From IMG/VR virus record IMGVR_UViG_3300025853_000046, positions 1 to 64,000 of that record: 64,000 bases of DNA; one strand, given 5' to 3'. Every line of letters begins with the position of its first letter. Position 1 is the first letter of the stretch. A program made the position numbers and the translations under genes. Positions 24,744 through 58,662 of this stretch are shown here, one piece after another. The notes beneath the pieces are model-generated. The model had not been told where the DNA came from and did no database searches. It was given only the letters and a program-made list of their open reading frames with translations. The DNA comes from a virus.

Positions 24744-25304
24744 TTACTTTTTTGTATATCTGGATAGTTTATCTAAGGTTTCTTCTATATATTTTAAATT
24801 TCTGTTGTGGTTTTTAAATGTTCTGCGTAATATTCTTTTGTTTCTAAGCGATACCATTTTGTCAGTAAATTTTTTCAATCTTGTGTGTGTTCGATAAATC
24901 CTTTCAGCATCGTCAGTAAGTCTATCAGTATATTCATCCAAATTCCACAAAGCGATTTTAAATAATCGTGGTTCTTCATCTGGTTTGTTCTTCTTCTCTT
25001 TGTAACTTTCTTTAAATTTATTATATTCTTCTCTTAACTTTTTTTCATACCTTTTAACTTCTTTAAGATAACCTACAAGTGAACCCTTTTCCCCTAATAA
25101 CTTCATATCATATTCTTTAGGTGGAGTCGGTAATCCTATTAAAGTTCTTCTTATCTGTCTACCCATTTTTCTGTCTTTAATTCTTGAATTTTTTACCCTG
25201 TCTAATATTTCCTTGTGCGCCTCAATAACATTAGGGTCATTATGCTTACGACCTGCCTTAACATAATGTTCTCGGTTGTATTTTATAATGTCTCGCCAAC
25301 TCAT
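24744..25304 (-). CDS. Basic hypothetical protein with W-x-x-I-I-K leader
   Basis: Starts MSWRDIIK; K/R-rich. Confidence 0.7.
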   Translation of the reverse strand: MSWRDIIKYNREHYVKAGRKHNDPNVIEAHKEILDRVKNSRIKDRKMGRQIRRTLIGLPTPPKEYDMKLLGEKGSLVGYLKEVKRYEKKLREEYNKFKESYKEKKNKPDEEPRLFKIALWNLDEYTDRLTDDAERIYRTHTRLKKFTDKMVSLRNKRILRRTFKNHNRNLKYIEETLDKLSRYTKK

Positions 25305-25414
25305 TTTTTTACTTCCTTTCCAGTTACAAAATCTTTTTGAGTTTTCTTTTCTTTTTTATCTACTATCTTTGACTGAACATCAAACCAATTATCTAAAAAA
25401 ATACATCGTGTCAT
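25301..25414 (-). CDS. 37-aa hypothetical protein (not in ORF track)
   Basis: MTRCIFLDNWFDVQSKIVDKKEKKTQKDFVTGKEVKK; GGTGA SD; ATGA overlap. Confidence 0.5.
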   Translation of the reverse strand: MTRCIFLDNWFDVQSKIVDKKEKKTQKDFVTGKEVKK

Positions 25415-25558
25415 TTACTCACCTAATTGTTCTTTGTAATACTTCAAGGCATCTTTAGCCTTAGCATCATTCGGGTCTTTTTTTAATCTGCGCTCATACT
25501 CTTGAATTTTTTCTTTGAAATAAGTTTCAGCATCTTTCTTTAAAGTATCTTTCCACAT
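25415..25558 (-). CDS. 47-aa hypothetical protein with W-x-x-T-L-K leader (not in ORF track)
   Basis: MWKDTLKKDAETYFKEKIQEYERRLKKDPNDAKAKDALKYYKEQLGE. Confidence 0.55.
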   Translation of the reverse strand: MWKDTLKKDAETYFKEKIQEYERRLKKDPNDAKAKDALKYYKEQLGE

Positions 25559-25560
25559 AG

Positions 25561-26001: not shown

Positions 26002-26002
26002 T

Positions 26003-26266
26003 TTATTCTCCTCTTAAATTTTTTTGTAATCTTGCGAGACCTATTTTTAAATCCCTACCTGTGCTATGTATATTAAATCTATCATCCTTTCTTGCGGCTA
26101 CGGTAATACTGGAGGTAGCGGGAACATGAGACATATTTCTTTCATTTAAAAAAGTAATATACTGCTGGGGATATACAGGTGCGTTCCACATAAGAATATA
26201 TTCTTCTAATAAATCTAAATGCTTAGGTCTGACCTTTACACGCTTTAAAATAGATTCCCACATCAT
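26003..26266 (-). CDS. Hypothetical protein with W-x-x-I-L-K leader
   Basis: Starts MMWESILK. Confidence 0.6.
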   Translation of the reverse strand: MMWESILKRVKVRPKHLDLLEEYILMWNAPVYPQQYITFLNERNMSHVPATSSITVAARKDDRFNIHSTGRDLKIGLARLQKNLRGE

Positions 26267-26481
26267 AGTATTTGCACTCCTGTTAAATATGTAATCCCGA
26301 TTGCGGCTAAAAGGTAGACTCCTCTTCGTAGCATAACCATGTCTTTTTCCATGTGAAATAAATGATTTGTCTCAATTGTGTGAACTCGTGTGTCAATGTC
26401 GTTCACTTTCGAGACAAGCCAATTTATTTTACCATCCGAATCTCTCTCAAGGACTTCATCTAAATCAGACATGCCTACCAC
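26263..26481 (-). CDS. Coiled-coil + C-terminal TM protein (XhlA/holin-like)
   Basis: HTIETNHLFHMEKD followed by GVYLLAAIGITYLTGVQIL. Confidence 0.55.
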   Translation of the reverse strand: MVGMSDLDEVLERDSDGKINWLVSKVNDIDTRVHTIETNHLFHMEKDMVMLRRGVYLLAAIGITYLTGVQIL

Positions 26482-26978: not shown

Positions 26979-26982
26979 AGTA

Positions 26983-29382: not shown

Positions 29383-29726
29383 TAATCCACTTCCACTGTT
29401 ATAATAAATTCAATTTCTTGACTTGCTGTTAAAGGGCCTATACCATCATAACTAACTCTCGTTAACATTGTTCCCCCTGATACTTCTGAGAAAATTCCTA
29501 CTTCTTTAATTGTTTGTCCTGTGTGCGTCGAGCCTTGAAGGGTAAATGTAAAATCAATTGTAGTATCTCCGGCAGAAACTACAGTAAGAGTTCCCCTTGA
29601 ACCTAAAGGTGAATCTAATGCACTTGCATTCGGGTTCGTTGAATCTCCACCTGTTCCTACCTCATAATGGGTAAAGGTCGTAACGATGTAATTTTTAAGT
29701 AGTTCCCTTCCATCTTTTGTTATCAT
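29382..29726 (-). CDS. Tail/baseplate fibre-attachment protein
   Basis: ITKDGR..VGTG..IKEVGIF..MLTR pattern typical of tail-collar/fibre N-terminal domains. Confidence 0.6.
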   Translation of the reverse strand: MITKDGRELLKNYIVTTFTHYEVGTGGDSTNPNASALDSPLGSRGTLTVVSAGDTTIDFTFTLQGSTHTGQTIKEVGIFSEVSGGTMLTRVSYDGIGPLTASQEIEFIITVEVD

Positions 29727-32700
29727 AATCCTACCCCCGAACCAAAGCCTATTGTCTTTGTAAATCCTATTACAGAACTTGAAGTTCCCAATGCAGAAGT
29801 GCTACTTGTTATCGTAGCCTTGACAAATTTAACCCGAATCCCCTGTATATCAATATTAGGAGAGGTCACACTCTTATAGACTTTTTGTTGTGACCTCCCT
29901 TGTAAATTACGAGTTTCTGATAATAACATAGAAAAGGTATTTGCTAAATCTCTATCATATTCACCAAGTAAAATAACAGTAGGGCTTCCTGTTCTTTTTA
30001 TTACTTCGACCACAACATATTCAGACCTGTATATATTTTCACTTGGATAATATACAGAAACTACTTGTTTTGGTTGTAAGTGAGGTATTTTATCGCCAAC
30101 TTCTATTGTAAGGGCTTGACTATTTTTACTATATAATTTCAATAAGTCCTTAGCCTTTTGGTCTACTTGCTCTTGAGATATTAAAGAAAAGTCATAAATT
30201 TCTTTAACCTTTTCTCTGTTCTTATTAATATCTCTTCTATCTCTTGCTACACCTTTAACATTATCTCCATAAACTTCTACAGAATTAAACTTATCATAGA
30301 ATGATTTATTTTTTCTAATGCTCACAATCTTATAAGTATTTTCATCTTCATTAAATTCTATATCTCTATAATCCTTCGCTTCTTCATTACTGACAATTTT
30401 AATGTTTGTTCCATCAATATTTAATTTTTGGTCTTTAAATGACAAGGCATTATTAATAGCCGTAAATGCGTTTTGTCCTGTATAATTTAATGCGAGATAG
30501 TATTGAGATGTTTCTGTTCCTTTGGTATATTCTGTTCCTACCTCTCCTACAATTTCATCTACAATAGCATCAACTTCAGGGGCTATTGAAAAGGCACTTA
30601 CAATTTTTACAGATTCTACATCCTTTTTAATTTCACCAATTATAGAAATTGTAAATGTTTCGCCAAGAGAAACACACCCCTTCATAGTTTTCATTTCATC
30701 AAAAATTAAAGAATATCTTTTAGTCGCATAATCATATGTATTATATTTAACAAGCATATTTGTATTTAAAGTATTTTTACCATCGGTAATGTGCATTTTA
30801 TAACTTGTTTCAGGGTAAAATTTGTTTCCTGTATTTTCGTGGAAGATAGGAGAATCACCCCTATGTATTAAATGAGTAGAACCATGACCGTCAAGTTCTG
30901 CTATAACATACATCGCTTGAACTGCATGGTCTCCTTTAGTCCATGTATAACCTTCCTTTGTGCAATCAGTAATAGTATAGTCGGTTTTAGTTTTTTCATT
31001 TGTAAAGAACTTACCTGTTTTAGGATTAATTACATTTGTTCCTGACATATTATTCATAACATAATGCTTTTTATCTGAACTAAAAGTATCATTAGCGATA
31101 GTTAATACTGAAAAAATATCTGATGCGCCTACATTTCCATGAGTATAATTATCAATATGAAGGTAGTGTATAAAGGCAGTAGTAGTATCTAATTTAGAAA
31201 TATTGTGATTTAAAATTTGATGTAGAGTTTTATCGTTTTCGTTATACAAAAACTTTCCTGTTAAGTCTCCAACATAATGAATCCATTCCATAAGAGTTTC
31301 AGTTTCATCGTGGGTATTAGTAGCATTTTCAATATCAAAATCTACTATAACTTTTATATATCCCTCACTATTATGGTGATTTGCTTCCGCCCCTTCTATT
31401 TTTGAAACATTTGTAGCGGCCATATCAATTTTAGGAATGTATAAAACTTCTGCATATGCCTTGTGCATTGATGTATCTCTTACTGTATTATCGTTAGGAA
31501 CATATTGTACTCCGCCACTTGAATCAATATCAGAAGTTGCTCTATGATTATCTAATAATCGAGGTATTTCAAAACCGATATAATCATAAGTACTACCATT
31601 TACCGTTGTTGTATCTCTTGTAGTAAATGCCGAATCTATTGTTGTTCCTATATTTGTAGCATTCTGTAAATATATATCTCTTTCTACATTGTATTGATTT
31701 CCGGCTTCACTTCCAAAATGTTCATCAGGACTAAACCCTACAACTACTAAACCCATATCATTATAAATTGAAACATCAGTTGTTGTGATATTATCAACAA
31801 TACCAGCACCATTAATCATTCTATAAGGGTGTGCAATATTACCTTCTTTCTTTATACCTGTAACTATTGATACTGTTACTGCGTTTGAATCATTTGCTAA
31901 GGTAGCACCTGATATTTCATAGACTGTAATATATGTAGCCTCAACTCCCATAATATTATATGTCCTATTAAAGTTAGCAGTTGTGTGGTTGTCTACTACT
32001 ATTTGCCCGTCATCTATAAAATGATGAGTTAAAACAGTGTTTGAATCAGAACTTTGAGTTGGAAAATTAATTCTTATTTGATTAAAAGTTGTTCCACCGA
32101 CTACCACTGTTGCTCTATTTGAAAAGGTTACAGTGCCTTTGTATAAGTATTTAGCAGGTGCGTTATTATCTACCCCTGAATATCTTCTTAAACTTTGATG
32201 ATTAATCATTGTATAACTGGCAGTTGTATTTAATAGAACTACATTATGGTTATGACCTACTGGATTTTCTTGATTATCCCACTTAATACGATTAGCATTT
32301 TTTAGAGTAGTGGCTGCACTTCCCCCATTCCCCCATGCGTAATCGGCTGTAAAAATTTCACCTGTATATCCAACTACCTTACAATTAGCCGCTAATGTAA
32401 TTACAGGCCCTACTGAATTAGTAGAACTTACTTCTCCTAAATATCTACTTATACCAGTTGTATCAGTTGCTGGATTAGTATATAAAGATGTATTTACAGT
32501 AACACTACTTGCGCCACCGTATGCAGATAAGTTATGTGTTATATTTATCCCAGCAATATTATCAACTTGTATTGTAGTGGAATCAGTTGTAGCACTACGA
32601 GTATTACATTTATAAACAGAATAACCTACTTCTGGAATAGATTTAGGATATGCTACTGGTAATGTTAATAGTCCTGCCCCGCCAGCAGATGATGACGGTT

Positions 32701-35700
32701 GGCTTTCTTCAGCACTATTTAATTTATAAGTTTCATAATTAACTTCATTCATATAAGAGTCCACTGTCATATGTCTTAATTTTAAAATACTAAATCTTTT
32801 TGGTGTGGTGGATAAATCATTAGTAATTGGGAAATAATCAAAATCCCTTTCTTGAATTTTATCTATTTTTGAAACGCCTTTGTAATTTGAATGTGAAATT
32901 GTTGTATTACTACTTGTAGATTTATATTTAATCATTAAATAGTAATCACTCATATTTCTATTTAAAGATGTATTAAAAAAGTTATCATAACGCTTTTGAC
33001 TTTCAGGTAACATATCTCCGGGGGCCATCAAAAAGGCATTAAAAATAGAAGGGTCATCCATTTCATATTCTAATTTTGGTCTTGTATATCCTGCATTTAA
33101 AAGACCATTTGCCCAAGAATCAGTTTCTACTGAAACCTTTGATAAATTATAAAGAGATGATTCAAATATATCAGGGTAATTTGTAATATCTTGAGTAGTG
33201 CTTCCAACAACAGGTAGATAACCACGAGAGGTAATTGGTATATCTTTTTTATTAGCCAAATCAGAAGTAGTAAAATCGCTATTTAAGTTACGAGCAATAA
33301 TCGTATCAGCCATAATTCTAAAAGCGGAGGCTGACCCTTTAAATGATATATCTTTATCAAAATAATATGTATTATAATCAGGTTTTAAAGTTTCACTTAA
33401 CATGTGTATTTTATTTCTATAATATTTTAAAGATGTTTTACTTAGATTATTATATCTAAATATAGGTATTCCGAATCTAAAGGCATAATTATTATAAATA
33501 TCAACGCTCGAAGAATCTCTATCATCTGCCACTATTCTTCTAAAAGTAGTTGGGGCAAATCCATATACTGAACCACTACTACTGTTCTTATTATCTAAAA
33601 GATGTAAGAACCCACCCCTATCTAATCCCTGTGTATTAATTAAACCTAAATCAGAAAGATTAGTATAATATGTATCTAATGTATTTGAGTCTAATCTTCC
33701 TAAAACAATTGGTGAAATATAACCAACTTCAATATCTATCGTATTTTGTTCTTGAGGAGATATATTTATAACATTCATGTTACATAAACTTCCCATCATA
33801 TCTGTTTCTATATCGAACCCTAAAGGTGTATCTGTTGGAGATGCTGAAGTTCCCTGTGTTGCTACAATTCCCTCAACTTTATTTCCAAGTAAAATAGCGG
33901 GTGATTCATTAGCATTTTTTATATTATAATCACTAAAAGAAGTAGATTCTGTTGTAAGGTTAAATGTTTTTCCCCCACCTTTCATTACATATCCTTTATC
34001 AGCACTTCCGTATAAAGTAGTAGCAGAAGAATCTCTACTATGTGTGGTAAGTGATTTGCCCGCAAGTAGTTTCTTATTACCTACATATATATTTTCTATA
34101 TTATTTCCACTTCCATCAAATAAAGCATCTAATTCTAATAAACTATCTGTAAGTAATGTAATATTACCCCCCGTTGTTTCACTCGCTCTATCTGCCCCAA
34201 CTACACCTAAAGGAACATAAAGTGTTGTAGAACCGTAGCCGTATCTAATGTATAAGACATCTCCATATGTTAATGCTACGGTAGAAGTTCCAGTTGTAGG
34301 AACTATGTTACTCGTCAAAACCGTAGTATTATTTACCGCAGTTAAACCAGTAGAAGTAAAAGAATCTGTAAAGGGGGTGACAGTAGAATACACATATTCA
34401 TCCGAATAGGTAAAGTTTTTATTAAGAGATTTTCCTATAAGTTTAGATATATCATCTCTACCACTTATGGATAATTTAAAAGCACCGGCTTCAATATCTG
34501 TTTCAATAGATTCAACACTACCCTCAAATACTACTTTATTTGTAGAAAGTGTTCCTTTTATAGAACCCATTGTATTTCCACCAGAATAATAAGAAGATGC
34601 AGGAACTGTTATTAATTCAGTATAGCCGTCATTTTTATCTCCCCTATTTACTCTTAGGTCAAATCCTGCTAAATTACCATCAACCATATATTCTAAATTA
34701 TAAATATCTGCCTCTGTTTCAGTAAGTTGTATTCCATTTCTAAAAACATTTGTGTTAATTGTAGTATCAATATCATGTCCAACCAACATATTGCCTACAA
34801 CCGGAGACCAAATATGGCGAAAAGCCTTTGCATTTGTATGTGTAAAAACCCCATTAGAAGAAATATTTTCATAGGCCACACTTGTTATAACTCTTCTATT
34901 AGTAACCGTAATTGTTTGCTCTCCGTCTACAGGTGCTGTAATTCCCGAAATAGTGTAGTAATAATCACCGATAAGAATAGGTTCATATGCTGATGAACCA
35001 TCATAAAGTAAATTTCTTAAATCCTGATTAACCAAATTGGAAACAGAAATTGTTGTAGAAGTAGCCCTTGAATAAAGTCCGGGTAAAGAACCTGTTGGTT
35101 CATCTAAAATAGAAGTTTGGTGAATTAATTCTTTTACCTTAATTCCTTCATTATTATTAATCTTATGTTCCAACATTCTCTCATTATCATAATAACTTGC
35201 TTTAAACATATTACCTTTATTTGTAACAGTTTTACTTGTTTCTACTGAATAAGGAACTGATATAATTTGAGTTCTTGTAGGAGAATCTATAAATCTGATA
35301 TAAGTAGGAAGAGAACCATCTGTATCATCGTAGTTTTTAGAAGAACCTGTCCATGATGTATAGTCAAAGGTATATGTTCCGCCCTGTGCAGTAGCCGTAT
35401 TTATTCCTCTTGGAGAAACCCCATTTGCCGAACTTGTGGTAAAATGTAATGTATCATTTAGTTGGTTATTATCTATTACATCTCCGTTATGAGTAAAGAA
35501 ACCCTTGTCTATAATAAATCCTGAAGTTACAGGTGCTGTTACAAAAACAGACTTTACCGTTTTTAATCCTACTGCCCCAGTACTTTTACTTGTTTTTAGT
35601 AATGTGTATTTTCTTGAAGGGTCTAATGTTTTTCCTTCATAGAAATAAAATGTTGGCCTACTTACCTCAACATACTTATCGTGTCTTTCTTCACTTGTAT

Positions 35701-42573: not shown

Positions 42574-43167
42574 TTACAAACTGTTGGCGAATCTCTTCAT
42601 AGTCACATTTATTCTATATCCAAATATTCTTGATTTTTTATCATTAGCGTCAGTTCGACTTCCCAGTATAAGATGTTTAATGTTTTCTTCTAAACTACCC
42701 GCACTTCGGAACCAGCCCCTCCGGTTTGTTTCAATGATGTATCGCACTATCTTATAAAGGTTTTCTATTCTGTCACGACCAAAAGTAGAACCCGTAGGTG
42801 CAACTCTCGCATTATCATTAGTCCGTCTATCATCTTGTTTTGTCCTAATACTTACAGACATTTCATGTGTTTCATTTCTTACAGACCAATCACGAGTAGG
42901 ATATTCAACAGTTTGAGAGTTTTGCATTACAGCAATAACATCTAAAGAAGGTGTAACTCCGTCTGCTGTAACTTCTGAAGCCGCACTAATTCTTACTTTA
43001 TTACCACCTCTTCCCGGCTTTGCTGTATTACGAGTAGAACTCATATCTCGTATATCCATAATCTGAGGTTTAACTCTATGAATTGCAGGAATAGCAGAAC
43101 CTAAAGCAGTAACAGCGGTATTCCAATATTCGTCAAGTAGTGTAACTAAATATGTAACTTCATCCAC
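42574..43167 (-). CDS. Tail terminator/head-tail joining protein candidate
   Basis: Position directly upstream of the tail tube gene; alpha/beta 197 aa. Confidence 0.5.
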   Translation of the reverse strand: MDEVTYLVTLLDEYWNTAVTALGSAIPAIHRVKPQIMDIRDMSSTRNTAKPGRGGNKVRISAASEVTADGVTPSLDVIAVMQNSQTVEYPTRDWSVRNETHEMSVSIRTKQDDRRTNDNARVAPTGSTFGRDRIENLYKIVRYIIETNRRGWFRSAGSLEENIKHLILGSRTDANDKKSRIFGYRINVTMKRFANSL

Positions 43168-44002
43168 GATTTCTCCTCTCCCTTAATTCTCTTTCTGTAA
43201 TCTCTTCCTCATAGTCTTCGGTTGTTCCATATCCGCCCATTACCTCATCATCTACACCCATTCCGTAGTCCATACTTTCCGCATACCATTTGTCATAAAT
43301 AATTTCTTGAACTAATGACATATCTTTTAATGAAGTTTCTGCCTGTAGTTCGGCAGTTCTTTGTAATATAATTTGTTTCAATAATATAATTTCTTTATCA
43401 CCTGTATCTCTTATATCTATCCCCATTTCATAAGCAATATCAGGCCAAGTTAAATTACCAATTCCCTCCATATTTTTTAATTCAACACTATCCATATTAT
43501 AAATTAATTGGTCTAAAGTATCAATAAACTTTTCAGAAATAGACATTCTGTTCTGCGTGTTTTTTCTATCCATTTCTAATTCAAATAAATAATTATTAAT
43601 TAGTTCAAGCATTTCTTCTAACTGTTCTGATAAAATTTCTATATCACTAACATTTACTCTTCTTTTTTCCTTTTCAATTTTATGTTGAGTTAATAAATTA
43701 AGTATTTTATCGGGTTCTAATTGTAGGATTAATGGAGATAATTCAACTAATAAACCATTTGCGCTATCATATGTCAAGGCAATTTCTTCCACATATCTTT
43801 GAGTAACTTTAATATATTTTAAAACTTTAGGATAACCATTAACAATATTATTAATATTATTTGTAACAATATTTTTTAAATATTTTTCAATTTCCACTAC
43901 TTTATATTCAGGTATCTTAGGAGGTATAAAATCATCAGACAATGGGTTATTTTCAGGTTCTATGTCCTGTATTTCTATCTTTAAAATTGACTCCCAAATC
44001 AT
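43160..44002 (-). CDS. Acidic hypothetical protein with W-x-x-I-L-K leader
   Basis: Starts MIWESILK. Confidence 0.7.
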   Translation of the reverse strand: MIWESILKIEIQDIEPENNPLSDDFIPPKIPEYKVVEIEKYLKNIVTNNINNIVNGYPKVLKYIKVTQRYVEEIALTYDSANGLLVELSPLILQLEPDKILNLLTQHKIEKEKRRVNVSDIEILSEQLEEMLELINNYLFELEMDRKNTQNRMSISEKFIDTLDQLIYNMDSVELKNMEGIGNLTWPDIAYEMGIDIRDTGDKEIILLKQIILQRTAELQAETSLKDMSLVQEIIYDKWYAESMDYGMGVDDEVMGGYGTTEDYEEEITERELRERRNRG

Positions 44003-44205
44003 TCAAAAGCCTCCTCAATTCTTCTTTGAATAACTTGAACAACTTCCTGTTCGATAATCTGTTCCATTATTTCATCGCTCATTTTTTCACCCAAAGTTCT
44101 TTCGGTGTAGTCCTGTATATCCTCATTTTGCTGAACAACAGTTTCTAATATAGTCTCCATATCGAGTTGAACCATTCGCATTTTTTCTAAAATTTTACGA
44201 AACAT
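43999..44205 (-). CDS. Hypothetical protein
   Basis: Coupled ORF, helical. Confidence 0.55.
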   Translation of the reverse strand: MFRKILEKMRMVQLDMETILETVVQQNEDIQDYTERTLGEKMSDEIMEQIIEQEVVQVIQRRIEEAFE

Positions 44206-45205
44206 CTCTACGACCCCGTTTTCCTCTCACTGGTTTTAATTTACCAGACTTATCTTTTAATTTTTTTTGTGCTTCAAGAAGTTTTCTTTTCTTCTCTTCT
44301 GCTTCTCTCATTTTAGACCCAAGTTCAGCCGCTTCTCTTAAATTTAAATCTCTGGATTCTTGTTCTTTAATCGGTATTTCTCTTGGAACTAATTTAGCCT
44401 TTTCTCTATCCCATTGAGATTCGGGATTAGCGGCTTCTAATTGACGAATATTTTCTTCTTCTGTAAGTTCTTCCTCACCCTTCTCTCTTAAATCCCGTTC
44501 TTCGTAGTCTTGTTCTACTAATTCAATTACCATATCTGTAATTCTATTTCTTAATTCAGACTCACTATCAAATACTTCATTATCTGATAATTGAATGTCT
44601 CCCTCTACTGTTGTAAAAATATAGTCTCCCTCTTGTTCTCGAAAAAATACATGGACATATTTTCTACTTAAATCCTTTGCTCTAAATGAAATATTTAATG
44701 CAATTTTACCATCACGGTCTTCACCATCTACAAGTCTAACATTTGTTCTTCTACCATATTTATCTAAAGGAACTTCTCCTCTAAGATTTCTTCGTAGGCG
44801 AGATTTAAAATTTTCCCAATCACGAAGTTTTAAATACTCACCGGAACTTGTTTTTAACTTTTCAAGGTCTTCTTGTTGGTTTAATTTAACCATTTTGGCT
44901 GGTATCGGCGGCAATGATTTCTTCTCTTTCTTTCTACGCTTTTTCGCCACTCGTTCATATCCTTCAGGAAAACTTCTACCAATAAATCTATTCATTTTTT
45001 CCTTAATAAGAGACATAGGCAAAATATGCTTACCTGTTTGTGTATGTAGTTTTTTATATTCATTAATTATACTATTTATTACATCTTCAATTATATATTC
45101 ATCTTGATAACCTGTTTTTTCTACATGTTCAAGAAGTAGTTTTTTAAAAATACTTCCTATAACTTTACTTTTGACTTTGAGAATATCCGACCACATAATT
45201 ACCAA
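44195..45205 (-). CDS. Charged hypothetical protein with W-x-x-I-L-K leader
   Basis: MWSDILK, probable start at 45196. Confidence 0.7.
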   Translation of the reverse strand: MVIMWSDILKVKSKVIGSIFKKLLLEHVEKTGYQDEYIIEDVINSIINEYKKLHTQTGKHILPMSLIKEKMNRFIGRSFPEGYERVAKKRRKKEKKSLPPIPAKMVKLNQQEDLEKLKTSSGEYLKLRDWENFKSRLRRNLRGEVPLDKYGRRTNVRLVDGEDRDGKIALNISFRAKDLSRKYVHVFFREQEGDYIFTTVEGDIQLSDNEVFDSESELRNRITDMVIELVEQDYEERDLREKGEEELTEEENIRQLEAANPESQWDREKAKLVPREIPIKEQESRDLNLREAAELGSKMREAEEKKRKLLEAQKKLKDKSGKLKPVRGKRGRRDVS

Positions 45206-46014
45206 TCCCTACAAGCCATACAACGGGCTGAATAATCCCCACCTTTACATGTAGAACATTTATGTCTTGCTCTAAAAGATTTTTTACGCTTAGTATTTCC
45301 TCGCTTACCTGTTACTGAAACACCTCTTTGCCCCCAATGAACACGCTTATATCCACCTTTACCATTAGGAACGCAAGCCATCCATTTTTTACCCTTTCGA
45401 GTAGAACTTGTCTTTTTTGTTCTTTTAGTGCATTGTGATGAAGCCTTAGAAACTTCTTTTCCATCACAGCCACAGCCGCAACCTGAATCCATATTTTCAA
45501 TATCAGGTTTAGATTTAGGCGGCTTATCTTTATCTTTGTATGGAATTTCTAATATCTGTTTTATCTTGTCGGAAAGAGTGGGGTTATTTTCGTATTCATT
45601 TTCTCCTGTTACATAATCTATGTCCTCTTCCATTTCCGAAGTTATTTTCTTAGGCTTTACTTTACCGTAATCCTTTGCTTTTATAATTTGATATGTAGTT
45701 ATTCTGGAAACTCTACCAAGATTTTCAAGTTTTCCATCTCTAATTAATTTACCAAATGCAGTTTTAATTTGACCTGTAAATTTATGATTAAGAAATTGAC
45801 TAAAACCTGCTAATCTTCCGTCTTCGATTTCCGACCAATTGTTTCTCATGTATTGAATAATTTGTTTTTTATCTCTTTCAATATCTTCAATAGTCACTCT
45901 TTCCGATGGACTATTTTCTATATAATTTCTAATACCCTCATATACTTTTTGTCTGTATATAGGGTAATTTACTCTACTACTTCCCTTTAATATTTCTTCC
46001 CACATATCAATCAC
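45199..46014 (-). CDS. Hypothetical protein with W-x-x-I-L-K leader and basic Cys-rich C-terminal domain
   Basis: MWEEILK (probable start 46005); GCGCGC; KRVHWGQ..RKKSFRARHKC. Confidence 0.7.
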   Translation of the reverse strand: MIDMWEEILKGSSRVNYPIYRQKVYEGIRNYIENSPSERVTIEDIERDKKQIIQYMRNNWSEIEDGRLAGFSQFLNHKFTGQIKTAFGKLIRDGKLENLGRVSRITTYQIIKAKDYGKVKPKKITSEMEEDIDYVTGENEYENNPTLSDKIKQILEIPYKDKDKPPKSKPDIENMDSGCGCGCDGKEVSKASSQCTKRTKKTSSTRKGKKWMACVPNGKGGYKRVHWGQRGVSVTGKRGNTKRKKSFRARHKCSTCKGGDYSARCMACRDW

Positions 46015-51117: not shown

Positions 51118-52353
51118 TCATTGAAGGTCAATTAACTTGCCTTGTCCACGCACATAAGTACACATTGTTTCTCCGATTGTTCGGTAAAGTCCTCGGTGTC
51201 CTAAGAATCCGTGTCCGAAAACTTCCTTAGTGTTCATACCACCTTCAAAGTATTCAGTAGGCTTAAGAGTACACAAGAACAAATGGTCGGTATCAAGAAG
51301 TAAAATATCTGAAATACCGCTTCCGCCTGTTGGCATATCCTTACAAGGAATAATAGGAATGTCGTGATAGGTAGCAACCTTAAATCCGACTTCTCTTCCC
51401 TTAACTCCTTTAATACCACCATGAGAAGGAACAACTTCTGTTCGACCCATGAATCTTTCTTGGGCTTGGAGAAGTTCTCCTAATGTTTGAATGGTGTCAT
51501 ATCCTGTAAGGAAAACCTTTGGTGAACCGCCACGAGCCATCAAGTTTCGTAGAGCAGTATTAAGCATATTAACAGTCAAGTTACGAGCAGTTCCCGAATT
51601 TGAATCAACATATGCTTCAAGGTATTCTGTTCCCGACGAAGCACGAACAGTTCCGAAAAGATTTAGTTTTGCATTACCGTCAAGATTAGACAAAGCATTC
51701 ATTTCTGCATGAGTTGAAACAATCTTGTAAAGTGAAGTAAGAGAACGCTCTGGATTGTCGTAGTCTTTTCCACTTGAGGCAGGTGCATCCAAACCGGAAG
51801 TAGTCAAATCAGTAAGAACCATTGAGTTCATGGCTTCTGCGTGTGAAATACCAACTTCTTCACGGTAGGTAGAAATAATATCTCCGATACCATCATCCAT
51901 TCCTCCGAGAAGTTGTGCAATCTCCGAAAGTTCAAAGGTATGCGCAACAGTCTTAGGAGAAAGACTTAGGTTTGCGAAAGTAGGCTTAATTTCATCAATA
52001 TTGGAAATTGTAGCGTTTTCTACTTGTCCACCGAGAGTGTCCAAATCGGAAACAGTAAAAACATCAGTATTACCACCAAGAGAACGCCCCTTCATAACTC
52101 TCCAACCACTACTCTTCCACGGCTTCTTAGGAAGCATTGAAAGTGCGTTAATTTCTCGGTTAATCATAGACCAAACTTTTTGTCCATAAACCAAGTTATA
52201 CAAAGTAGCATCTCCACCCGAAGAAGGTGTTCCGCCTGTTTGGTCGTGAATAGGGTGAATACCCGTAAGTGCGGCTTTCAAAATATTACTTCCTCCGGAT
52301 AGTCCGTAGGTCGCTCGCTCTAAGTCTTCAATTGTTCTAAAATATCCTGTCAT
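51118..52353 (-). CDS. Major capsid protein (HK97 fold)
   Basis: Downstream of protease/scaffold; LPKKPW..GWRV, PKTVAHTFELSE, VATYHDIPIIP, LLLDTDHL; ATG 52353 with GAGGTG SD. Confidence 0.88.
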   Translation of the reverse strand: MTGYFRTIEDLERATYGLSGGSNILKAALTGIHPIHDQTGGTPSSGGDATLYNLVYGQKVWSMINREINALSMLPKKPWKSSGWRVMKGRSLGGNTDVFTVSDLDTLGGQVENATISNIDEIKPTFANLSLSPKTVAHTFELSEIAQLLGGMDDGIGDIISTYREEVGISHAEAMNSMVLTDLTTSGLDAPASSGKDYDNPERSLTSLYKIVSTHAEMNALSNLDGNAKLNLFGTVRASSGTEYLEAYVDSNSGTARNLTVNMLNTALRNLMARGGSPKVFLTGYDTIQTLGELLQAQERFMGRTEVVPSHGGIKGVKGREVGFKVATYHDIPIIPCKDMPTGGSGISDILLLDTDHLFLCTLKPTEYFEGGMNTKEVFGHGFLGHRGLYRTIGETMCTYVRGQGKLIDLQ

Positions 52354-52354: not shown

Positions 52355-53539
52355 TTAAGCACCTCTGTTGTATTTGTCCATTAATTCGTGAACTTCATTC
52401 CATGACATTTCTGAAATGTTATCGAAGTCCTCACTAAGTTGATTGGACACAGATTGAGTTTCTGCGGCCTTAGCGATAGTGTTGTTCTCAAGAGATTTCT
52501 TCAATTGAGAAAATTCTTCCTTAAGTGAAAGAACTGCGTCTGCGGCATTAAACTTGCTCTTAGCAATTTCATCTGCTTCGAGTGCAAGGTCTTTATTATA
52601 TCGGGCTTCAAATTCAGCCTTAATAACTTCGTATGCACGAGCCTCTTCTTTTTCAGCCTTGAATTGTTCATAGGCTTTTTCGATGTTTGACTTTGAAAGG
52701 TCAAGAGAATCAATAGATTCGGCCTTTGCTTCAACAAATTCCGAAAACTCGGCTTTCATTTCTCGACCCATCTTTTCTTCATCTTTCATTTCTTCAACAT
52801 CATCATCATCATCAGATTCTGCTTTCATTTCTTCGCTGTCATAGTCTCCCATTTCAACGGACTCCTCTTCCATTTCATCCATCATCTCAAGTTCTTCCTC
52901 TTGTTCGAGGGTGTCCATTGTATTCTTGAGAACCGTGGATTCACGGAGTTCAGCCATTACTTCATTAAACTCATTAAGAGCCTTTTCTATTTCTGTATTC
53001 ATTTTATTATCCTCCTTTATTAGGTTAAATTTTGCTTCAGGGTTTATGCCCTCTTCGCATATGGTGATTTCATGTAATTCAAGTTTATCAATTTCTTTAT
53101 AACTTCCGGTATCGGAGTCATATTTATTTGTCTTGTTTATCGCCTGTCCACCTATTGAAAAAGAACGAAGATTACCCTTTCTTACATCACGAGCAACCTC
53201 CTTAGCCTTTTCAATATCATTTCTTAATTTTATCACCACAAAAAACCCTGTATCATCAACGCCTGTTTTTAGGACTTTACCATTGGAATCTGTATATTGG
53301 TCTACGACCTCTCCGACTTGAACATTAGAATGTGTAATCATAACATTTCTATATCGGTCTTGTTTCATAAACTTATCAGCCGCTTCACGAATTGCGCCTA
53401 AAGTAATTTTATCATTTTGTTTATCTACTACATCAACTGATGCGTAGCCAGCAATAACACATTCATTATTTTCTTTAAGAATAACGAATTCTCCACCGCT
53501 ATTTGGCTCATCACCAAACATAGGAGTACTTAACTGCAT
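52355..53539 (-). CDS. Prohead protease (HK97-type) fused to acidic scaffold domain
   Basis: IAGYASVDVVDKQND, ITH, LRSFSIGG, LHEITICEEGINPEA; E/K-rich coiled-coil C-terminus. Confidence 0.9.
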   Translation of the reverse strand: MQLSTPMFGDEPNSGGEFVILKENNECVIAGYASVDVVDKQNDKITLGAIREAADKFMKQDRYRNVMITHSNVQVGEVVDQYTDSNGKVLKTGVDDTGFFVVIKLRNDIEKAKEVARDVRKGNLRSFSIGGQAINKTNKYDSDTGSYKEIDKLELHEITICEEGINPEAKFNLIKEDNKMNTEIEKALNEFNEVMAELRESTVLKNTMDTLEQEEELEMMDEMEEESVEMGDYDSEEMKAESDDDDDVEEMKDEEKMGREMKAEFSEFVEAKAESIDSLDLSKSNIEKAYEQFKAEKEEARAYEVIKAEFEARYNKDLALEADEIAKSKFNAADAVLSLKEEFSQLKKSLENNTIAKAAETQSVSNQLSEDFDNISEMSWNEVHELMDKYNRGA

Positions 53540-53581: not shown

Positions 53582-55672
53582 TTAAGAATCGTCTTCATAG
53601 ATATTAATTAGCCCTGAGTCACTCGATTTAGGGGCAGGTTTTGATTCATACCCTGTCCATGCGAGCCACATTTCTTTGTCTTGAACAGGTAAAAATCTAC
53701 AATGTATTTTAGTTTTTACCTCTTTTCCATTTAGAATATACTCGTGATAACCTTTTCTTTGTGCGCCTAAAATCATTGGCCCACGCTCAAGTAGTGTTTC
53801 AGTATCAGGTTTTGGTATTTGCTTACAGGGGTATTTACCGGACTCTCCTAAAAAGTCGTATATCTGTTCATCCCCACTTACTCGTATTTCCCAAGTCATC
53901 TTTTTACCTTGATAAATTATTACAAAATGTAAATATCCGTTCTTTGTAATCCAAAGTTCAAACTCCCCCTTACGAACTTCTGCTTTATTTAACACATCAT
54001 CATCGTGGCTAAACTTTCCAGCAGAATAAACAATTCCGTATGTTTCACCCGCTTTCATTAAACGGTCTTTCATTTTATTTTGTGAATTATTAAAAAGTCT
54101 ATTCATCATCTTAGGGTCATGTTTAGTGGCTCTACCAAAAATATCATCTGCGGATAAATTACCATAATCCATTACTAATTGTTTTACGAATATAAAAAAC
54201 CTACCATTATCTTTACCATAGGCATCTTTTAATTCTTCTTTCCAAAAGTCTATATCTATTGAAGCGTTTTTGGACATTAAATTTTTATCTTTAAATCCGT
54301 GAAAAATAAATCCATCTAAATCTAATTCTGTTTGAAGTTTTGCTACACCATGTATTCCATCTGTAATTTCATATGACTTTGTAAGGGCTTCTATTTTGTA
54401 ATCCCCAAGACTTTTCTTTCCACCTGTTGTTAAAAATTCAAGAGTAATTAACTTATCGGGAAGTTTTACTTCAGGTATTTCGTGAAACTTTGAATTGAAT
54501 AAAGAGAATCCCTTCTTAGGATTACCCATAATTTCATCTGCCGTTACACGAATAATAGTTCCCTCTTCTACATCTTGTTTAGTATTTGTTGTCTTACCGA
54601 CATTCATGTAAAAGTCTCCATCCATTTCAACAGCCTTAATACTATCTTCTTCAACAGGCCCGATACCCATAGAGTAGCCAAAAGTTCCATTTTTATTTTC
54701 AGTTTTAGACAAAACTATAACATCTAAGTCTACAAATTTTTTCCACTTAATCCATTTAGGGTTTTTCTTTTTACCAATAACATAAGAAGATTTAGCATCT
54801 TTAATAACCACACCCTCGGATGCAGGATTATCCATTATCTGCATAGCGTATTCTTCAATCTCGGATAAAGAATCAGCATCACGGGTATTACTTTTATTTG
54901 GAAATAATACCTTTTCATCTGCGTTTGCTGAAAAATTTTTCATAAGAATCATAATGCGTTCTTCTAATTTTTCAGACGCTACGGACTTATCTTCAAAATA
55001 CATAATATCAAATACATGCGCTTTAATATCTGCTTCTTCTGTTACCTTTTTATTAATATGGGCAAGAGTATCTGCTCGAACTAAAGGTTCTCCGTCTTTA
55101 TACATTACTGCTTCGCCGTCTAAAATACAACTTGGAAAAACTCTATTTTCTAAAACCTTAACAACATCAGGCATTTTGTCGGTAATGTCTCTTGCGTTAA
55201 ATGTGTAAATCTTAACCTTATTTTCAAACTTATGAATTTGTATTCTTAGACCATCGTATTTTTCTTGAACAATATAATCATTTGTAAGCCCTTTAATTTC
55301 TTTCATGTCGTCTATTTCAAATATACGATACATTGGTTTATTCGGTTCTATGAATTTTTCGGGTCTATCTTGTTTTACTATTTCAATAGGAGATTGCCTA
55401 TTATTAAAATATCCATAAATTTCACCTGCTTTATTATTTGCTACCGAAAAAGAATCATCAGAAAACAAAACACTGTCATCTATATTAGGAAATTGTTCCT
55501 TAATTTTGGGGTCTTTTAAAAGTTCTCTCAATTGAACTACTAATTTTTCCCAATCCTTTTCATATGCTTTAGGATTTTCCTTAGCACTTAAAAATGTAGC
55601 ACGAACCATGTTACTTAAAGAAGAAACATTTTTTACTACACTATCAAATTGAGTAAATATCATTACTCTCAC
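53582..55672 (-). CDS. lig: ATP-dependent DNA ligase with N- and C-terminal extensions
   Basis: QEKYDGLRIQIH (motif I), ILDGEAV, HVFDIM, EGVVIK, WIKWK, OB domain. Confidence 0.92.
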   Translation of the reverse strand: MRVMIFTQFDSVVKNVSSLSNMVRATFLSAKENPKAYEKDWEKLVVQLRELLKDPKIKEQFPNIDDSVLFSDDSFSVANNKAGEIYGYFNNRQSPIEIVKQDRPEKFIEPNKPMYRIFEIDDMKEIKGLTNDYIVQEKYDGLRIQIHKFENKVKIYTFNARDITDKMPDVVKVLENRVFPSCILDGEAVMYKDGEPLVRADTLAHINKKVTEEADIKAHVFDIMYFEDKSVASEKLEERIMILMKNFSANADEKVLFPNKSNTRDADSLSEIEEYAMQIMDNPASEGVVIKDAKSSYVIGKKKNPKWIKWKKFVDLDVIVLSKTENKNGTFGYSMGIGPVEEDSIKAVEMDGDFYMNVGKTTNTKQDVEEGTIIRVTADEIMGNPKKGFSLFNSKFHEIPEVKLPDKLITLEFLTTGGKKSLGDYKIEALTKSYEITDGIHGVAKLQTELDLDGFIFHGFKDKNLMSKNASIDIDFWKEELKDAYGKDNGRFFIFVKQLVMDYGNLSADDIFGRATKHDPKMMNRLFNNSQNKMKDRLMKAGETYGIVYSAGKFSHDDDVLNKAEVRKGEFELWITKNGYLHFVIIYQGKKMTWEIRVSGDEQIYDFLGESGKYPCKQIPKPDTETLLERGPMILGAQRKGYHEYILNGKEVKTKIHCRFLPVQDKEMWLAWTGYESKPAPKSSDSGLINIYEDDS

Positions 55673-56091
55673 ATCTCGTCACTTGGAGTTAAAGCCGCCT
55701 CTTCATTTACCGTTAAGGTATGTCGAAGACGCTTAAGTTTTCCGAGTGCTGTTTCTAAAGCGGCCTCTACATCTTTATCTTGAGAATCTTCGGCAGGTGC
55801 TACTGATTCTACACGAACTTCTTCTTGGTCGGGTTCTGCTTTGTATGTCATATTTTCAGGCATTAATTTACTTTGGTAATTTCTCTTAACCGTCGTCTGT
55901 TCCTTTGTAATTGGTTTAGCCGCCAACCGTTCAACATTAACTTGCTTTCCAGCATTCTCATTCTTTTGTGCATCGGCAGGTTCATACCCCAGTGCATTAG
56001 TAAGCAAAACTGTAAGTTCAGTTAATTGCGTTAAAACATCTACTCCCTGCATATCGGCTTCATCGGCTACCATTGTTTCTTTTTTACTCAT
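55669..56091 (-). CDS. Hypothetical protein
   Basis: Coupled ORF in the head module. Confidence 0.65.
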   Translation of the reverse strand: MSKKETMVADEADMQGVDVLTQLTELTVLLTNALGYEPADAQKNENAGKQVNVERLAAKPITKEQTTVKRNYQSKLMPENMTYKAEPDQEEVRVESVAPAEDSQDKDVEAALETALGKLKRLRHTLTVNEEAALTPSDEM

Positions 56092-56324
56092 ATTGTTCCC
56101 TCCAAATTTTTGACAAGTGAATCCAAATCACTCCAATCCATCTTTGAAATCACATCACCATTTGGCATACCCGCTTGGGCTTTTATGCTTGGTCTTGGAC
56201 TTCTTACAAATCCGGACTTCATAATTGCTGTGTCTGAATCTGCTAATTTTCTTTCTAAATCCTTAACCTTGTCGGATAGGGCTTTCAATATTTCTAAAAT
56301 TTCCACTGTTGTTTCTTCTTCCAT
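56088..56324 (-). CDS. Hypothetical coiled-coil protein
   Basis: GAGGAGG SD before ATG 56324. Confidence 0.6.
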   Translation of the reverse strand: MEEETTVEILEILKALSDKVKDLERKLADSDTAIMKSGFVRSPRPSIKAQAGMPNGDVISKMDWSDLDSLVKNLEGTI

Positions 56325-56328
56325 TTTT

Positions 56329-58662
56329 TTATTCCTCCTCATCATATACCATGTCGTATAATTTTTTATATAAATTTTCATATTTCTTTCTTAGTGATGC
56401 GGCTGTCTTAACCATTTGTAGATTTTTGACTCCCAATTTCTCTAAGAGTTCGCCCTCTTCATCTTCTGCTAATCCGTCAATTATATTTATAACTTTTCCT
56501 AAACGAAGGTAGTCTTCACCGAAGTATTCTGTTGGATGGGCATTTTGAAGTAGAGCCTTTACTTCTCTCCGCTTCTTTGGTGGAAGAGAAGATATATCTG
56601 CCTTTTCTAATGATTTACGAAGAGGGTCACTGGCAGTTCCTCTTTTCTTTCGTGGTAAATCTCTTCGACCCCTGTAATCTTTACTCGGCCCAGCAGGGGG
56701 CTTAGGTTTATTTTTAAAATCCTCAACTTCCTTTGGGTCATATTTAGGTCTTGCATCTTCTTTTCTTTTAGAACGAATTTTTTCTTCTTGTTCCGATGTC
56801 GTAACAGGGCTAATTTCCTCATCATAAGTTTCATCAGGTTGAGTTATAGGTTTTGGTTTAACTCCCAATCTATCTGCAATTGTATCTTTTTTACTTGGTG
56901 AAGCAACTGAAAAGGTTTGGTCTAAAACTAAAAGTAATAGTCCGATAACTGTATCATCGCCAACCTTTTCTGATAATAATTTTTCTAATCTCTCTACCTG
57001 TTTCTTGGATAAAAGTTCTTTATAAGAAGGGTCGAATAAATATCGAGACATCAAAGGTATAAAATTTTTATTTTTAAATTCAGCACCATTTACTATTTTT
57101 TGAACTCTTTGTGTTTTTATAACAGGTGTTAATTTTTTACCCCCAATTACAGACATATTTTTTATTAATTTTGTTAACAGTGGATTATTTCTACTGGTAA
57201 GCCATTCAACCATGTAAGGAAGTGTAACATCATCAAAACCAGCATCAGTAGTAGAACTTCTTATATCTTTTACAGATGGAATACCTTTTGCGTTAAATAT
57301 ATCTCCGACTAAATTATCCATAAATTTTTGATAATTGGTTACTTTAGGTATAGGTGCGTATTTAGTTTCCATCCAATTAGATACCCTTTCAAACTCTTCA
57401 GGGGTGTATCTCTTACCAACAGGTAAATTAAGTTCTGCTTCATTAACCAAAAAATTAATATTTTCCTTAACTGTTAATGTGGCTCTCGTAGCACCTTGTC
57501 TATTTAGTTTAATTTTAGCAACTGGATATTGCTCTCCACCAATAGTTTGCATTGATATTTCTACCATATTTTTTAAATTGCCTATAAATTTATTTAAAGT
57601 ATTTCCACCCGTAGAAGTAGATGTTGATTCTATCAACTCCATAATTTTATCAAACTTATTTTTATTTTTCTCTCTATATTTATTAATTGTAGGGGAATCT
57701 TCCCCATCTATAAATTTATCTAAAGCGATAATAAAGGAATCAAAATCAGCATTTGAAATCGGATACATTATTGTTCTTATTTGTGGTAGGTTTTGTTTCA
57801 TTTCAACTCTATCTATATCTTCTATATTATACCCATAATCTAAATAAAATCTTGTATTTAATTCTTCCTCAGCCTCATCAGAAGTTAAAGTAGATTCAGA
57901 AGTTACTTGTTTTATTTCCTCTCTTAAGTTTTTTATTTCCTCTCTTAAGTCCTTTATTTCTTTACCAAGAGATTCATAAATTGAATCTTGGGAAGGCGTT
58001 CTATAATCTAATAAATCAAATCTATCTTCCGCTGTTTTTAATTCTTTACTTGCTATACTTAATCTTTCTCTTAGTTTATCTTCTGTTCTTTTAACATTTG
58101 ATTTTGGTTTAAAATCTTGAAAATTACCCTTTCGTTTTTTTCTGTCACGAGTTTCTTTCGCTCTTAGTTTTTTACCTTCTTCTCTACTTTCTACACGGGG
58201 TTTTTCTCTTTCATCGAGATAAGGTTTATCTTCAGGAAGTTCCCTTCTTTTGAGTTTTTTAGGCATTCTTCTACCTTCTTCTCGATATTGTATAGTTTCA
58301 CTTTCCTTAAAAGGGTTAACTTCATCGTAATCAACAACATTTTCTTTGTAATGTTTAGCCGCTTCATCTATGGTAAGAGGAGTTTGTGCTTGAACTACTG
58401 TTTCATATACCACAGGAGGGCCTTTACTTTTTACCCTCTCAACAGGATAAAAGGAATCTCCACCCCGTCTTTTATATCCGTCACCTATAATTTCCCCGTT
58501 TTCATTTACCTTAATTGCCCCTTTTGAATTTTTTGTAGCCGTGAATGGATTATTTTTTGCTTCTAAAGGATTTTTTATTGCTTCATTAATTAACCTTTTA
58601 ATTTCTTTTACCGAAGTTCCTTTAGGTAAAGTAAAGGTCGCCTTTAGAATATCTTCCCACAT
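56329..58662 (-). CDS. Large charged hypothetical protein with W-x-x-I-L-K leader (777 aa)
   Basis: Starts MWEDILKA; coiled-coil segments. Confidence 0.75.
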   Translation of the reverse strand: MWEDILKATFTLPKGTSVKEIKRLINEAIKNPLEAKNNPFTATKNSKGAIKVNENGEIIGDGYKRRGGDSFYPVERVKSKGPPVVYETVVQAQTPLTIDEAAKHYKENVVDYDEVNPFKESETIQYREEGRRMPKKLKRRELPEDKPYLDEREKPRVESREEGKKLRAKETRDRKKRKGNFQDFKPKSNVKRTEDKLRERLSIASKELKTAEDRFDLLDYRTPSQDSIYESLGKEIKDLREEIKNLREEIKQVTSESTLTSDEAEEELNTRFYLDYGYNIEDIDRVEMKQNLPQIRTIMYPISNADFDSFIIALDKFIDGEDSPTINKYREKNKNKFDKIMELIESTSTSTGGNTLNKFIGNLKNMVEISMQTIGGEQYPVAKIKLNRQGATRATLTVKENINFLVNEAELNLPVGKRYTPEEFERVSNWMETKYAPIPKVTNYQKFMDNLVGDIFNAKGIPSVKDIRSSTTDAGFDDVTLPYMVEWLTSRNNPLLTKLIKNMSVIGGKKLTPVIKTQRVQKIVNGAEFKNKNFIPLMSRYLFDPSYKELLSKKQVERLEKLLSEKVGDDTVIGLLLLVLDQTFSVASPSKKDTIADRLGVKPKPITQPDETYDEEISPVTTSEQEEKIRSKRKEDARPKYDPKEVEDFKNKPKPPAGPSKDYRGRRDLPRKKRGTASDPLRKSLEKADISSLPPKKRREVKALLQNAHPTEYFGEDYLRLGKVINIIDGLAEDEEGELLEKLGVKNLQMVKTAASLRKKYENLYKKLYDMVYDEEE
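57911..57960. repeat. 21-bp tandem repeat (about 2.4 copies) encoding heptads EIKDLRE/EIKNLRE/EIK
   Basis: tttatttcctctcttaagt repeated with 21-nt period. Confidence 0.8.

Follow-up and report, generated by a model that had tools for sequence, protein, structure and literature searches.

An N-terminal peptide common to unrelated magrovirus proteins resembles the protease/scaffold tail and is a candidate capsid-loading tag

In encapsulins, a short terminal peptide docks diverse cargo inside an HK97-fold shell, and for the HK97 maturation protease, a C-terminal tail that targets it to the capsid was reportedly described by Duda, Oh and Hendrix in 2013. Among tailed phages, the internal proteins IPI-III and Alt of T4 bear a CTS (capsid targeting sequence), which the gp21 prohead protease removes (PMC3012670, PMC7411985), cleavage in HK97 occurs at K103/S104 (PMC10275583), and the DarB protein of phage P1 has an N-terminal packaging signal (PMC9024508). 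Here we describe an N-terminal peptide tag in magroviruses that appears analogous to the T4 CTS; no published description of this motif was found in the literature, magrovirus papers included.

Magroviruses are tailed viruses assigned to Poseidoniales, with genomes of ~90-100 kb; in surface oceans, they rank among the most abundant archaeal viruses, and the function is known for a minority of their genes. The DNA analyzed here comes from the IMG/VR record IMGVR_UViG_3300025853_000046 (whole genome, 90,822 bp), the window being positions 1-64,000 of this record. By the features tested, namely, the genome size, halovirus-like capsid, portal and protease genes, a replication module of its own and a chaperonin, the virus is a magrovirus. 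The major capsid protein (MCP) shows 27-29% identity to the capsid proteins of haloviruses (HCTV/HVTV), the portal and the protease match those of halovirus HCTV-1, and the gene layout agrees with the magrovirus layout reported previously (PMC5434244).

An eight-residue N-terminal peptide with the consensus M-[S/T/N]-W-x-[D/E/N]-I-L-K recurs in this genome (Table 1). The earlier note had listed seven such N-termini; all seven are on the minus strand and start exactly where that note placed them (the upper coordinates in Table 1), so the count was correct but covered only the part visible in the window. When all six frames of the complete 90,822-bp genome are scanned for W-x-x-[ILVTM]-[ILVM]-K, 23 matches emerge, 17-18 of which are located at residues 2-3 after a minus-strand start codon; slightly looser rules give 20 tagged genes, with 13 outside the window at 71.2-79.6 kb. 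A Shine-Dalgarno-like motif is found upstream of 16 of the 20 tagged starts, compared to 19% of random positions. The tag is confined to the morphogenesis strand, as had been claimed for the virion arm (20 tagged genes vs ~59 genes called on the minus arm, and none among the ~52 genes on the plus, replication arm; Fisher p = 2e-5), and the tagged proteins are indeed otherwise dissimilar, with no pairwise similarity between the bodies of the 20 at E <= 1e-5. The bulk of the tagged genes lie in a cluster of small genes upstream of the terminase, outside the classical structural genes, and some sit within the head and tail module. Strand and position suggest that the tagged genes are expressed late, although the cluster upstream of the terminase could be expressed early, which counts against capsid loading.

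Table 1. Tagged genes and the capsid and protease features in the window
Feature	Position	Strand	Remarks
Tagged gene, 186 aa, MSWRDIIK	24744..25304	-	no Pfam family
Tagged gene, 47 aa, MWKDTLKK	25415..25558	-	no Pfam family
Tagged gene, 87 aa, MMWESILK	26003..26266	-	no Pfam family
Tagged gene, 280 aa, MIWESILK	43160..44002	-	in variable insertion spot
Tagged gene, 333 aa, MWSDILK	44195..45196	-	
Tagged gene, 268 aa, MWEEILK, C-terminal DUF5754 domain	45199..46005	-	PF19058, E = 1.7e-7
MCP, SU10_MCP/HK97-type, 411 aa from ATG	51118..52353	-	PF17236
N-I-L-K, MCP residues 23-26; candidate maturation cleavage site K26/A27	52276..52287	-	K26 invariant
Prohead serine protease with S78 domain at residues 23-177 and a fused acidic helical scaffold-like tail	52355..53539	-	PF04586, E = 1.3e-11; 46 homologs aligned
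Protease tail motif M-S-W-N-E-V-H-E-L, residues 378-386	52382..52408	-	conserved in 67 homologs
L-I-K, residues 173-175, end of protease domain; candidate self-cleavage site	53015..53023	-	K175 invariant (46 homologs)
Tagged gene, 777 aa, MWEDILKA	56329..58662	-	head module, portal on one side, protease on the other

In the related magroviruses from IMG/VR, there are 9-21 tags per genome, restricted to the strand of the head and tail genes in all 25 records where both could be placed. The 521 tagged proteins of these relatives belong to 292 unrelated families and are encoded in arrays of tagged genes with fast turnover. Orthologs with and without the tag are both found, indicating that the tag is separable from the protein body. 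For example, the ortholog of the 777-aa protein, which has only a C-terminal ~90-aa domain in common with a conserved head-module family, is tagged in one related locus (L303) and untagged in three others (L299, L301 and L309). In other magrovirus lineages, a second dialect, M-T-A-F-D-x-A-W-x-L-L-K, substitutes for the first tag and also ends in hydrophobic-hydrophobic-Lys. A scan of 596 Gb of cellular genomes returned only chance-like single matches and no host-side counterpart; in the structural region of halovirus HCTV-1, no N-terminal tag common to its proteins was detected.

Three tagged genes lie between the head-completion and tail tube genes and one adjoins the portal, and accordingly, the tag might dock minor structural or decoration proteins to the portal, connector or tail, outside the head. 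This is highly improbable: these locations are variable insertions, with 0-5 tagged genes per genome (that of the 280-aa gene is flanked by the tail tube gene and a conserved gene of ~364 aa), the numerous unrelated families are ill-suited to the role of structural parts, and the tag resembles the tail of the scaffold (see below), which acts inside the shell.

Within the tag, Trp, Ile, Leu and Lys are kept as residues, the Lys being nearly invariant, and the codons for Ile, Leu, Lys, Asp and Glu follow the background usage, so conservation is at the peptide level. The earlier claim that the codons vary synonymously thus stands for these positions but not for codon 2, which is biased at the nucleotide level: Ser is encoded by AGT in 92% of the tags vs 29% in gene bodies, and nearly all second codons start with A. 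This bias, along with the strictly N-terminal location, could reflect a determinant of expression or stability, such as a translation ramp, an N-degron or an anti-degron, by which the abundance or lifetime of a class of accessory proteins would be set. Such a role is distinctly unlikely, however, given that the MCP, the most highly expressed gene, and every replication-strand gene lack the tag, that Trp, Ile, Leu and Lys are retained with background codon usage, and that there is also a conserved C-terminal copy of the motif, for which no role in initiation is possible. The conserved gene starts might also be nucleotide-level recombination junctions that shuffle gene cassettes, in line with the fast turnover of the arrays; the odds of this are next to negligible because synonymous positions vary at background rates and the second dialect plays the same role with different DNA, that is, conservation is by residue, not by base.

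The C-terminal copy of the motif belongs to the virus's own protease/scaffold protein, for which the Pfam matches are to the S78 families only (PF04586, PF14550). The start of the tag and the conserved C-terminal tail of this protein have M-S-W-acid-acid-[I/V] in common, and W380 of the tail is invariant in the alignment of 46 homologs. Across 1.8 Mb of related DNA, the pattern [ML][ST]W[DENQS][DEQ][IVAL] accounts for 116 N-terminal tags, 80 matches at most 25 residues from a C-terminus and 9 matches elsewhere, the 80 C-terminal matches being taken to be protease tails because the protease served to retrieve 80 of the 200 loci, an assignment by locus selection and not ORF by ORF. The protease tail of halovirus HCTV-1 likewise has S-W-E-E. 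Covariation of the tag with the tail is partly positive: one lineage, group Y, has an M-S-W-D-E-V-H tail together with the second tag dialect, and such failure of the two to co-vary cleanly counts against capsid loading.

The hydrophobic-hydrophobic-Lys end of the tag resembles a site in the MCP, where the SNILKA string pointed out in the earlier note was recovered as S-N-I-L-K/A at residues 22-27. Lys26 is invariant in 66 homologs despite varying neighbors (context x-[IL]-[LM]-K/[AS]); in the type-2 lineages, which use the second dialect, the MCP counterpart is [DE]-L-L-K/A-D, and the tags end in L-L-K. Directly after the tag Lys, Ala is enriched and Pro is nearly excluded (2 of 481 tags, vs 6-8% at the next four positions; p = 7e-6 against the gene-body background of 3.6%). 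The match to the MCP is weakened by the abundance of Lys in these proteins, in which hydrophobic-hydrophobic-Lys strings are common. The same applies to the protease strings LIKE, VLKN, LKKS and IAKA that had been linked to the tag: all are present, but there are 9 hydrophobic-hydrophobic-Lys strings in 394 residues, and just the ones located at domain borders are informative. In particular, the L-I-K at the end of the protease domain, within a conserved F-x-[LI]-[IV]-K-E context around K175, may be a self-cleavage site. PDB sequence searches with the MCP and its profile produced no match, and the AlphaFold2 models had pLDDT values too low to place the candidate site in the fold of the MCP (pLDDT 40; 66 sequences) or the candidate site and the tail in the protease/scaffold (pLDDT 45; 46 sequences).

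These similarities suggest a two-part tag, with a docking part followed by a cutting part. The first part (a small residue, Trp, two polar residues and Ile) would begin a short amphipathic helix; it seems to copy the C-terminal tail of the protease/scaffold and therefore probably brings the tagged proteins to the docking site of that tail within the procapsid during assembly. The second part resembles the N-terminal site of the MCP and probably serves as the cleavage site for the S78 head protease, and a cut after the tag would free the cargo from the shell. The cargo would then be a fast-changing set of small soluble proteins that are carried inside the head and might accompany the DNA into the host. 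We estimate the probability that the tag is such a capsid-loading, protease-clipped signal, with the T4 CTS serving only as an analogy, at roughly 0.5. From the zip-code proposed in the earlier note, what is retained as observation is a modular, peptide-level signal on unrelated proteins, limited to the morphogenesis strand and matched in the protease tail and the MCP site; the docking, cutting, packaging and ejection of the tagged proteins are extrapolated from these sequence similarities. Some 20 cargo species are many for a ~91-kb virus, which counts against capsid loading.

A membrane helix is predicted in 1 of 449 tagged proteins, compared to 61 of 575 untagged neighbors, a contrast in favor of capsid loading. 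Pfam searches with 141 representatives of the tagged families detected six families only, including PAP2, a tRNA-ligase phosphodiesterase domain and a weak match to SAM-lyase, and the PHROGs matched by tagged proteins are two families, both unnamed. A Sec, Tat or lipoprotein signal peptide for export, which calls for a twin-Arg motif or a hydrophobic core at least ~10 residues long, was rejected: three residues of the tag are hydrophobic, the linkers that come next are charged or Pro-rich, and a membrane helix is almost never present in the tagged proteins.

The tag could also be a docking helix for a hub other than the capsid: the chaperonin, an E1-like/JAMM ubiquitin-like system in which the nearly invariant Lys would be the acceptor, or a component of the virus factory. 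A ThiF-like E1 is encoded in all complete tag-bearing genomes (12 of 12 complete type-1 genomes) and the chaperonin in 16 of the 17 complete genomes; the S78 protease is encoded in each complete genome of type 1 (12 of 12) and type 2 (5 of 5), and with all three (nearly) universal, co-occurrence does not single out the protease. Two tag-bearing records without capsid or protease genes (G010 and G014) are incomplete fragments and hence unfit for testing capsid dependence. We nevertheless consider a non-capsid hub unlikely: the chaperonin and E1 genes are on the strand opposite to the tagged genes, one complete genome (G011) has 20 tags but no chaperonin, and the motif in the protease/scaffold tail, the MCP-site match and the exclusion of Pro after the Lys would be left unexplained.

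Under the capsid-loading reading, one of the closest parallels is the T4 CTS, also a short N-terminal peptide common to otherwise unrelated, fast-evolving proteins, and the proposed logic is the same: docking onto the core of the scaffold or onto the shell, removal of the peptide by the head protease, and travel with the DNA. The magrovirus system differs in its S78/HK97-type protease, far sharper consensus, archaeal host and ~20 tagged genes per genome vs a handful in T4, and we know of no sequence resemblance between the tag and the T4 CTS. The S78 families are presumably distinct from the T4 gp21 protease family. Packaging and cleavage are proven for T4, whereas the magrovirus tag is known from sequence alone; the two systems are analogous, the magrovirus one not being a member of the T4 type. 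The HK97 protease is of the same Pfam S78 family and has a conserved C-terminal extension, and the candidate sites have Lys at P1 as in HK97; unlike in HK97, the magrovirus tail motif seems to have been copied to the N-termini of many proteins, and a long acidic scaffold-like region is fused to the protease. P1 DarB parallels the proposed tag in that its N-terminal signal loads an anti-defense protein into an HK97-type head, but the P1 Dar proteins have no common consensus tag and are loaded stepwise through partner proteins. The cargo-loading peptides of encapsulins, unlike the magrovirus tag as proposed here, are usually C-terminal and uncleaved, operate without DNA or a protease, and are unrelated in sequence.

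The M-S-W-acid-acid-[I/V] motif in the protease/scaffold tail, the likeness of the tag end to the MCP Lys26/Ala27 site and the exclusion of Pro after the tag Lys are new observations. A broader and still tentative idea, possible rather than probable, is that of proteome-scale cargo addressing, whereby a tag of 8 or 12 residues, copied from the scaffold tail and existing in at least two lineage dialects, would load any gene product that would then be clipped and delivered into the next host, making about one gene in five part of a virion-borne effector arsenal. If capsid loading is true, a readable address tag would sort about one-fifth of magrovirus genes into a virion-delivered class without cultivation and flag candidate host-takeover and anti-defense factors of the uncultured Poseidoniales. 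Archaeal viruses would thereby gain their first described capsid-targeting signal, and a very short peptide with a sharp definition would become available for bringing foreign proteins into HK97-fold shells. The relation between the tail and the tag, if real, would show an evolutionary route to such an addressing system.

A genome-wide scan found 20 minus-strand genes that begin with M-(0-1 residue)-W-x-x-[IL]-[LI]-[KR], hereafter the tag. The seven tagged N-termini listed in the earlier note (starts 25304, 25558, 26266, 44002, 45196, 46005 and 58662) are all present exactly as reported, and the other 13 are at 71.2-79.6 kb, outside the window; most tagged genes are located upstream of the terminase gene. 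As claimed in that note, the bodies of the encoded proteins are otherwise dissimilar, being unrelated to one another across all 20 genes, and the tag is confined to the virion arm (20 of the ~59 genes called on the minus arm vs 0 of ~52 on the plus arm; Fisher p = 2e-5). A Shine-Dalgarno-like motif precedes 16 of the 20 tagged starts, compared to 19% of random positions.

The virus is represented by a single contig of 90,822 bp, and the window covers its initial 64 kb. Plus-strand genes encode the replication functions (1-24.8 kb and 84.7-90.8 kb); the minus-strand genes, which extend from 82.6 kb to 24.7 kb, include those for the large terminase (TerL), portal, protease, major capsid protein (MCP) and tail tube. 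The MCP shows 27-29% identity to the capsid proteins of haloviruses HCTV-1 and HVTV-1 and has hundreds of relatives in marine metagenomes; given these relationships, along with the chaperonin and the genome size, the virus is a magrovirus (PMC5434244). In the tail region, a 2252-aa ORF with a G+C content of about 0.31, markedly below the surroundings, has no match in Pfam.

Features of the magrovirus genome discussed in the text (genome coordinates)
Feature	Position	Strand	Remark
ThiF-like E1 domain	1694-5726	plus	replication strand
2252-aa tail-region ORF	29723-36481	minus	
Tail tube gene	40911-42557	minus	
MCP	51118-52353	minus	
S78 prohead protease fused to acidic tail	52355-53539	minus	
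696-aa DNA ligase-domain protein	53582-55672	minus	
~90-aa C-terminal domain of 777-aa tagged protein	56329-56600	minus	
Portal	61623-63284	minus	
TerL	~64650-66062	minus	past window end (locus L323); 68% identity to its counterpart in locus L299; overlaps next gene by 59 nt
Tagged PAP2-domain protein	71844-72683	minus	7844-8683 in locus L241
509-aa tagged protein	77333-78862	minus	13333-14862 in L241

The tag is widespread among related viruses. DNA encoding M-x-W-E-D-I-L-K matched more than 120 loci in an IMG/VR scan; in ~1 Mb of these loci, the tag heads 496 ORFs of at least 40 aa (up to 19 per 14 kb), with only 229 motif matches elsewhere in the six frames. In related records taken whole, there are 9-21 tags apiece, all on a single strand, and a reversed control pattern has zero matches; wherever tags and protease were both found (25 records), that strand is also the protease strand. 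The IMG/VR record behind locus L020 (G008, 184,733 bp) has the protease and ThiF-like genes in duplicate and probably does not represent one large virus but a concatemer, or a chimera, of two magrovirus genomes. Among cellular genomes (596 Gb), the M-x-W-E-D-I-L-K pattern yielded only single, chance-like matches, 84 of 120 of which are not ORF starts.

The consensus of 539 tags is M-[S>T>N]-W-[E/K/F/Q]-[D/E/N]-I-L-K, without conservation downstream. The Ile, Leu, Lys, Asp and Glu codons of the tag follow background usage, so selection acts at the peptide level, as previously proposed; this does not hold for codon 2, where a nucleotide-level preference is superimposed on the peptide motif, perhaps serving initiation: AGT accounts for 92% of the Ser codons at this position (e.g. 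25299-25301) vs 29% in gene bodies, and nearly all second codons of tagged genes begin with A. The 521 complete tagged proteins (median length, about 108 aa) group into 292 families, and Pfam matches were obtained for 6 of 141 family representatives. A membrane helix is predicted in one of 449 tagged proteins vs 61 of 575 untagged same-strand neighbours (p = 7e-15).

The principal new result is a motif that appears to link the tag to the head machinery. The C-terminal tail of the 394-aa protease/scaffold protein reads E-M-S-W-N-E-V-H-E-L (residues 377-386), and the pattern in 67 homologues (52-98% identity) is [EN]-[ML]-[ST]-W-[DENS]-[EQ]-[IVAL]-[HN]-x-[LMF], with W380 invariant, such that M-S-W-acid-acid-[I/V] is common to tag and tail. 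Among all ORFs of at least 80 aa in 1.8 Mb of related DNA, 116 matches to the shared motif are N-terminal tags and 80 lie no more than 25 residues from the C-terminus; the latter are taken to be protease tails, since retrieval with the protease yielded 80 of the 200 loci. Only 9 matches are located elsewhere, mostly in tags with an upstream in-frame Met. The HCTV-1 protease tail contains K-S-W-E-E-E even though no N-terminal tag is shared within that virus's structural region, so the tail motif seems to predate the tags. By analogy with the tail of the HK97 protease, and with the C-termini of scaffolds generally, the magrovirus tail would be expected to bind the procapsid interior.

The terminal Lys of the tag resembles candidate cleavage sites in the head proteins. 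The MCP retains T-I-x-D-L-E-R-A-T-Y-G followed by x-[IL]-[LM]-K/[AS], where Lys26 is invariant in 66 homologues and its neighbours vary; the protease retains V-I-L-K (residues 19-22), L-I-K at the end of the catalytic domain (173-175), V-L-K ahead of the acidic region and I-A-K/[AQS] close to the tail. Directly after the tag Lys, Pro is found in 2 of 481 cases, compared to 6-8% at the next four positions, and Ala in 13.7% (background, 4.9%). The HK97 protease, a member of the same family, cleaves its capsid protein at K103/S104 (PMC10275583). By itself, the hydrophobic-hydrophobic-Lys tripeptide is weak evidence of a cleavage site because it occurs 9 times in the protease alone.

A second, 12-residue dialect, M-T-A-F-D-x-A-W-x-L-L-K (type 2), starts 193 ORFs in 79 other IMG/VR loci. 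The two dialects are mutually exclusive: type-1 genomes carry 9-21 type-1 and no type-2 tags, and type-2 genomes 1-16 type-2 tags and 0-1 type-1 matches. Both end in hydrophobic-hydrophobic-Lys, and MCPs of type-2 lineages carry [DE]-L-L-K/A-D. Tag and protease tail do not co-vary cleanly because type-2 genomes possess two kinds of tail, D-[GA]-W-[RL]-A-[LV]-E-x-L and the type-1-like M-S-W-D-E-V-H-N-L. This imperfect covariation makes strict mimicry less convincing but leaves the broader idea of docking intact; all tags and tails share the helix form small residue, aromatic, x, x, hydrophobic, x, x, Leu. Within the head module, the gene just upstream of the protease encodes a 696-aa protein whose ATP-dependent DNA ligase domain matches PF01068 (E = 7e-32), an odd location for a DNA ligase; a protein of similar size occupies this position in related loci of both dialects.

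The tag and the protein body are separable. The head-module orthologue of the 777-aa tagged protein, with homology beginning only near residue 180, is tagged in one relative (L303) and untagged in three others; in the PAP2-domain family, the tag directly precedes the conserved body in most members and is absent in some; and the number of tagged genes located between the ~364-aa and tail tube genes varies (0-5) with the genome. The C-terminal P-T-E-Y-F-G domain of the 777-aa protein is a mobile module that also forms the whole body of ~106-aa tagged proteins in five loci (L005, L022, L025, L035 and L048) and ends untagged ~830-aa head-module proteins. Internal tag-like motifs in the PAP2-domain protein (S-K-S-W-E-N-I-L-Q, residue ~207) and the 509-aa protein (M-E-S-W-E-I-A-L-K, ~60 residues from the C-terminus) may be remnants of fusions between tagged genes or sites of internal processing.

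No mention of the tag motif was found in the literature searched. Gene co-occurrence cannot separate capsid loading from rival explanations because the ThiF-like E1 domain (12 of 12 complete type-1 genomes; related records G001-G020) and the chaperonin (16 of 17 complete genomes) are near universal too. The most economical reading, to which we assign roughly even odds, is that the peptide is a capsid-loading tag that would be clipped off by the head protease, analogous, not homologous, to the T4 capsid targeting sequence (PMC3012670, PMC7411985) and the P1 DarB signal (PMC9024508).
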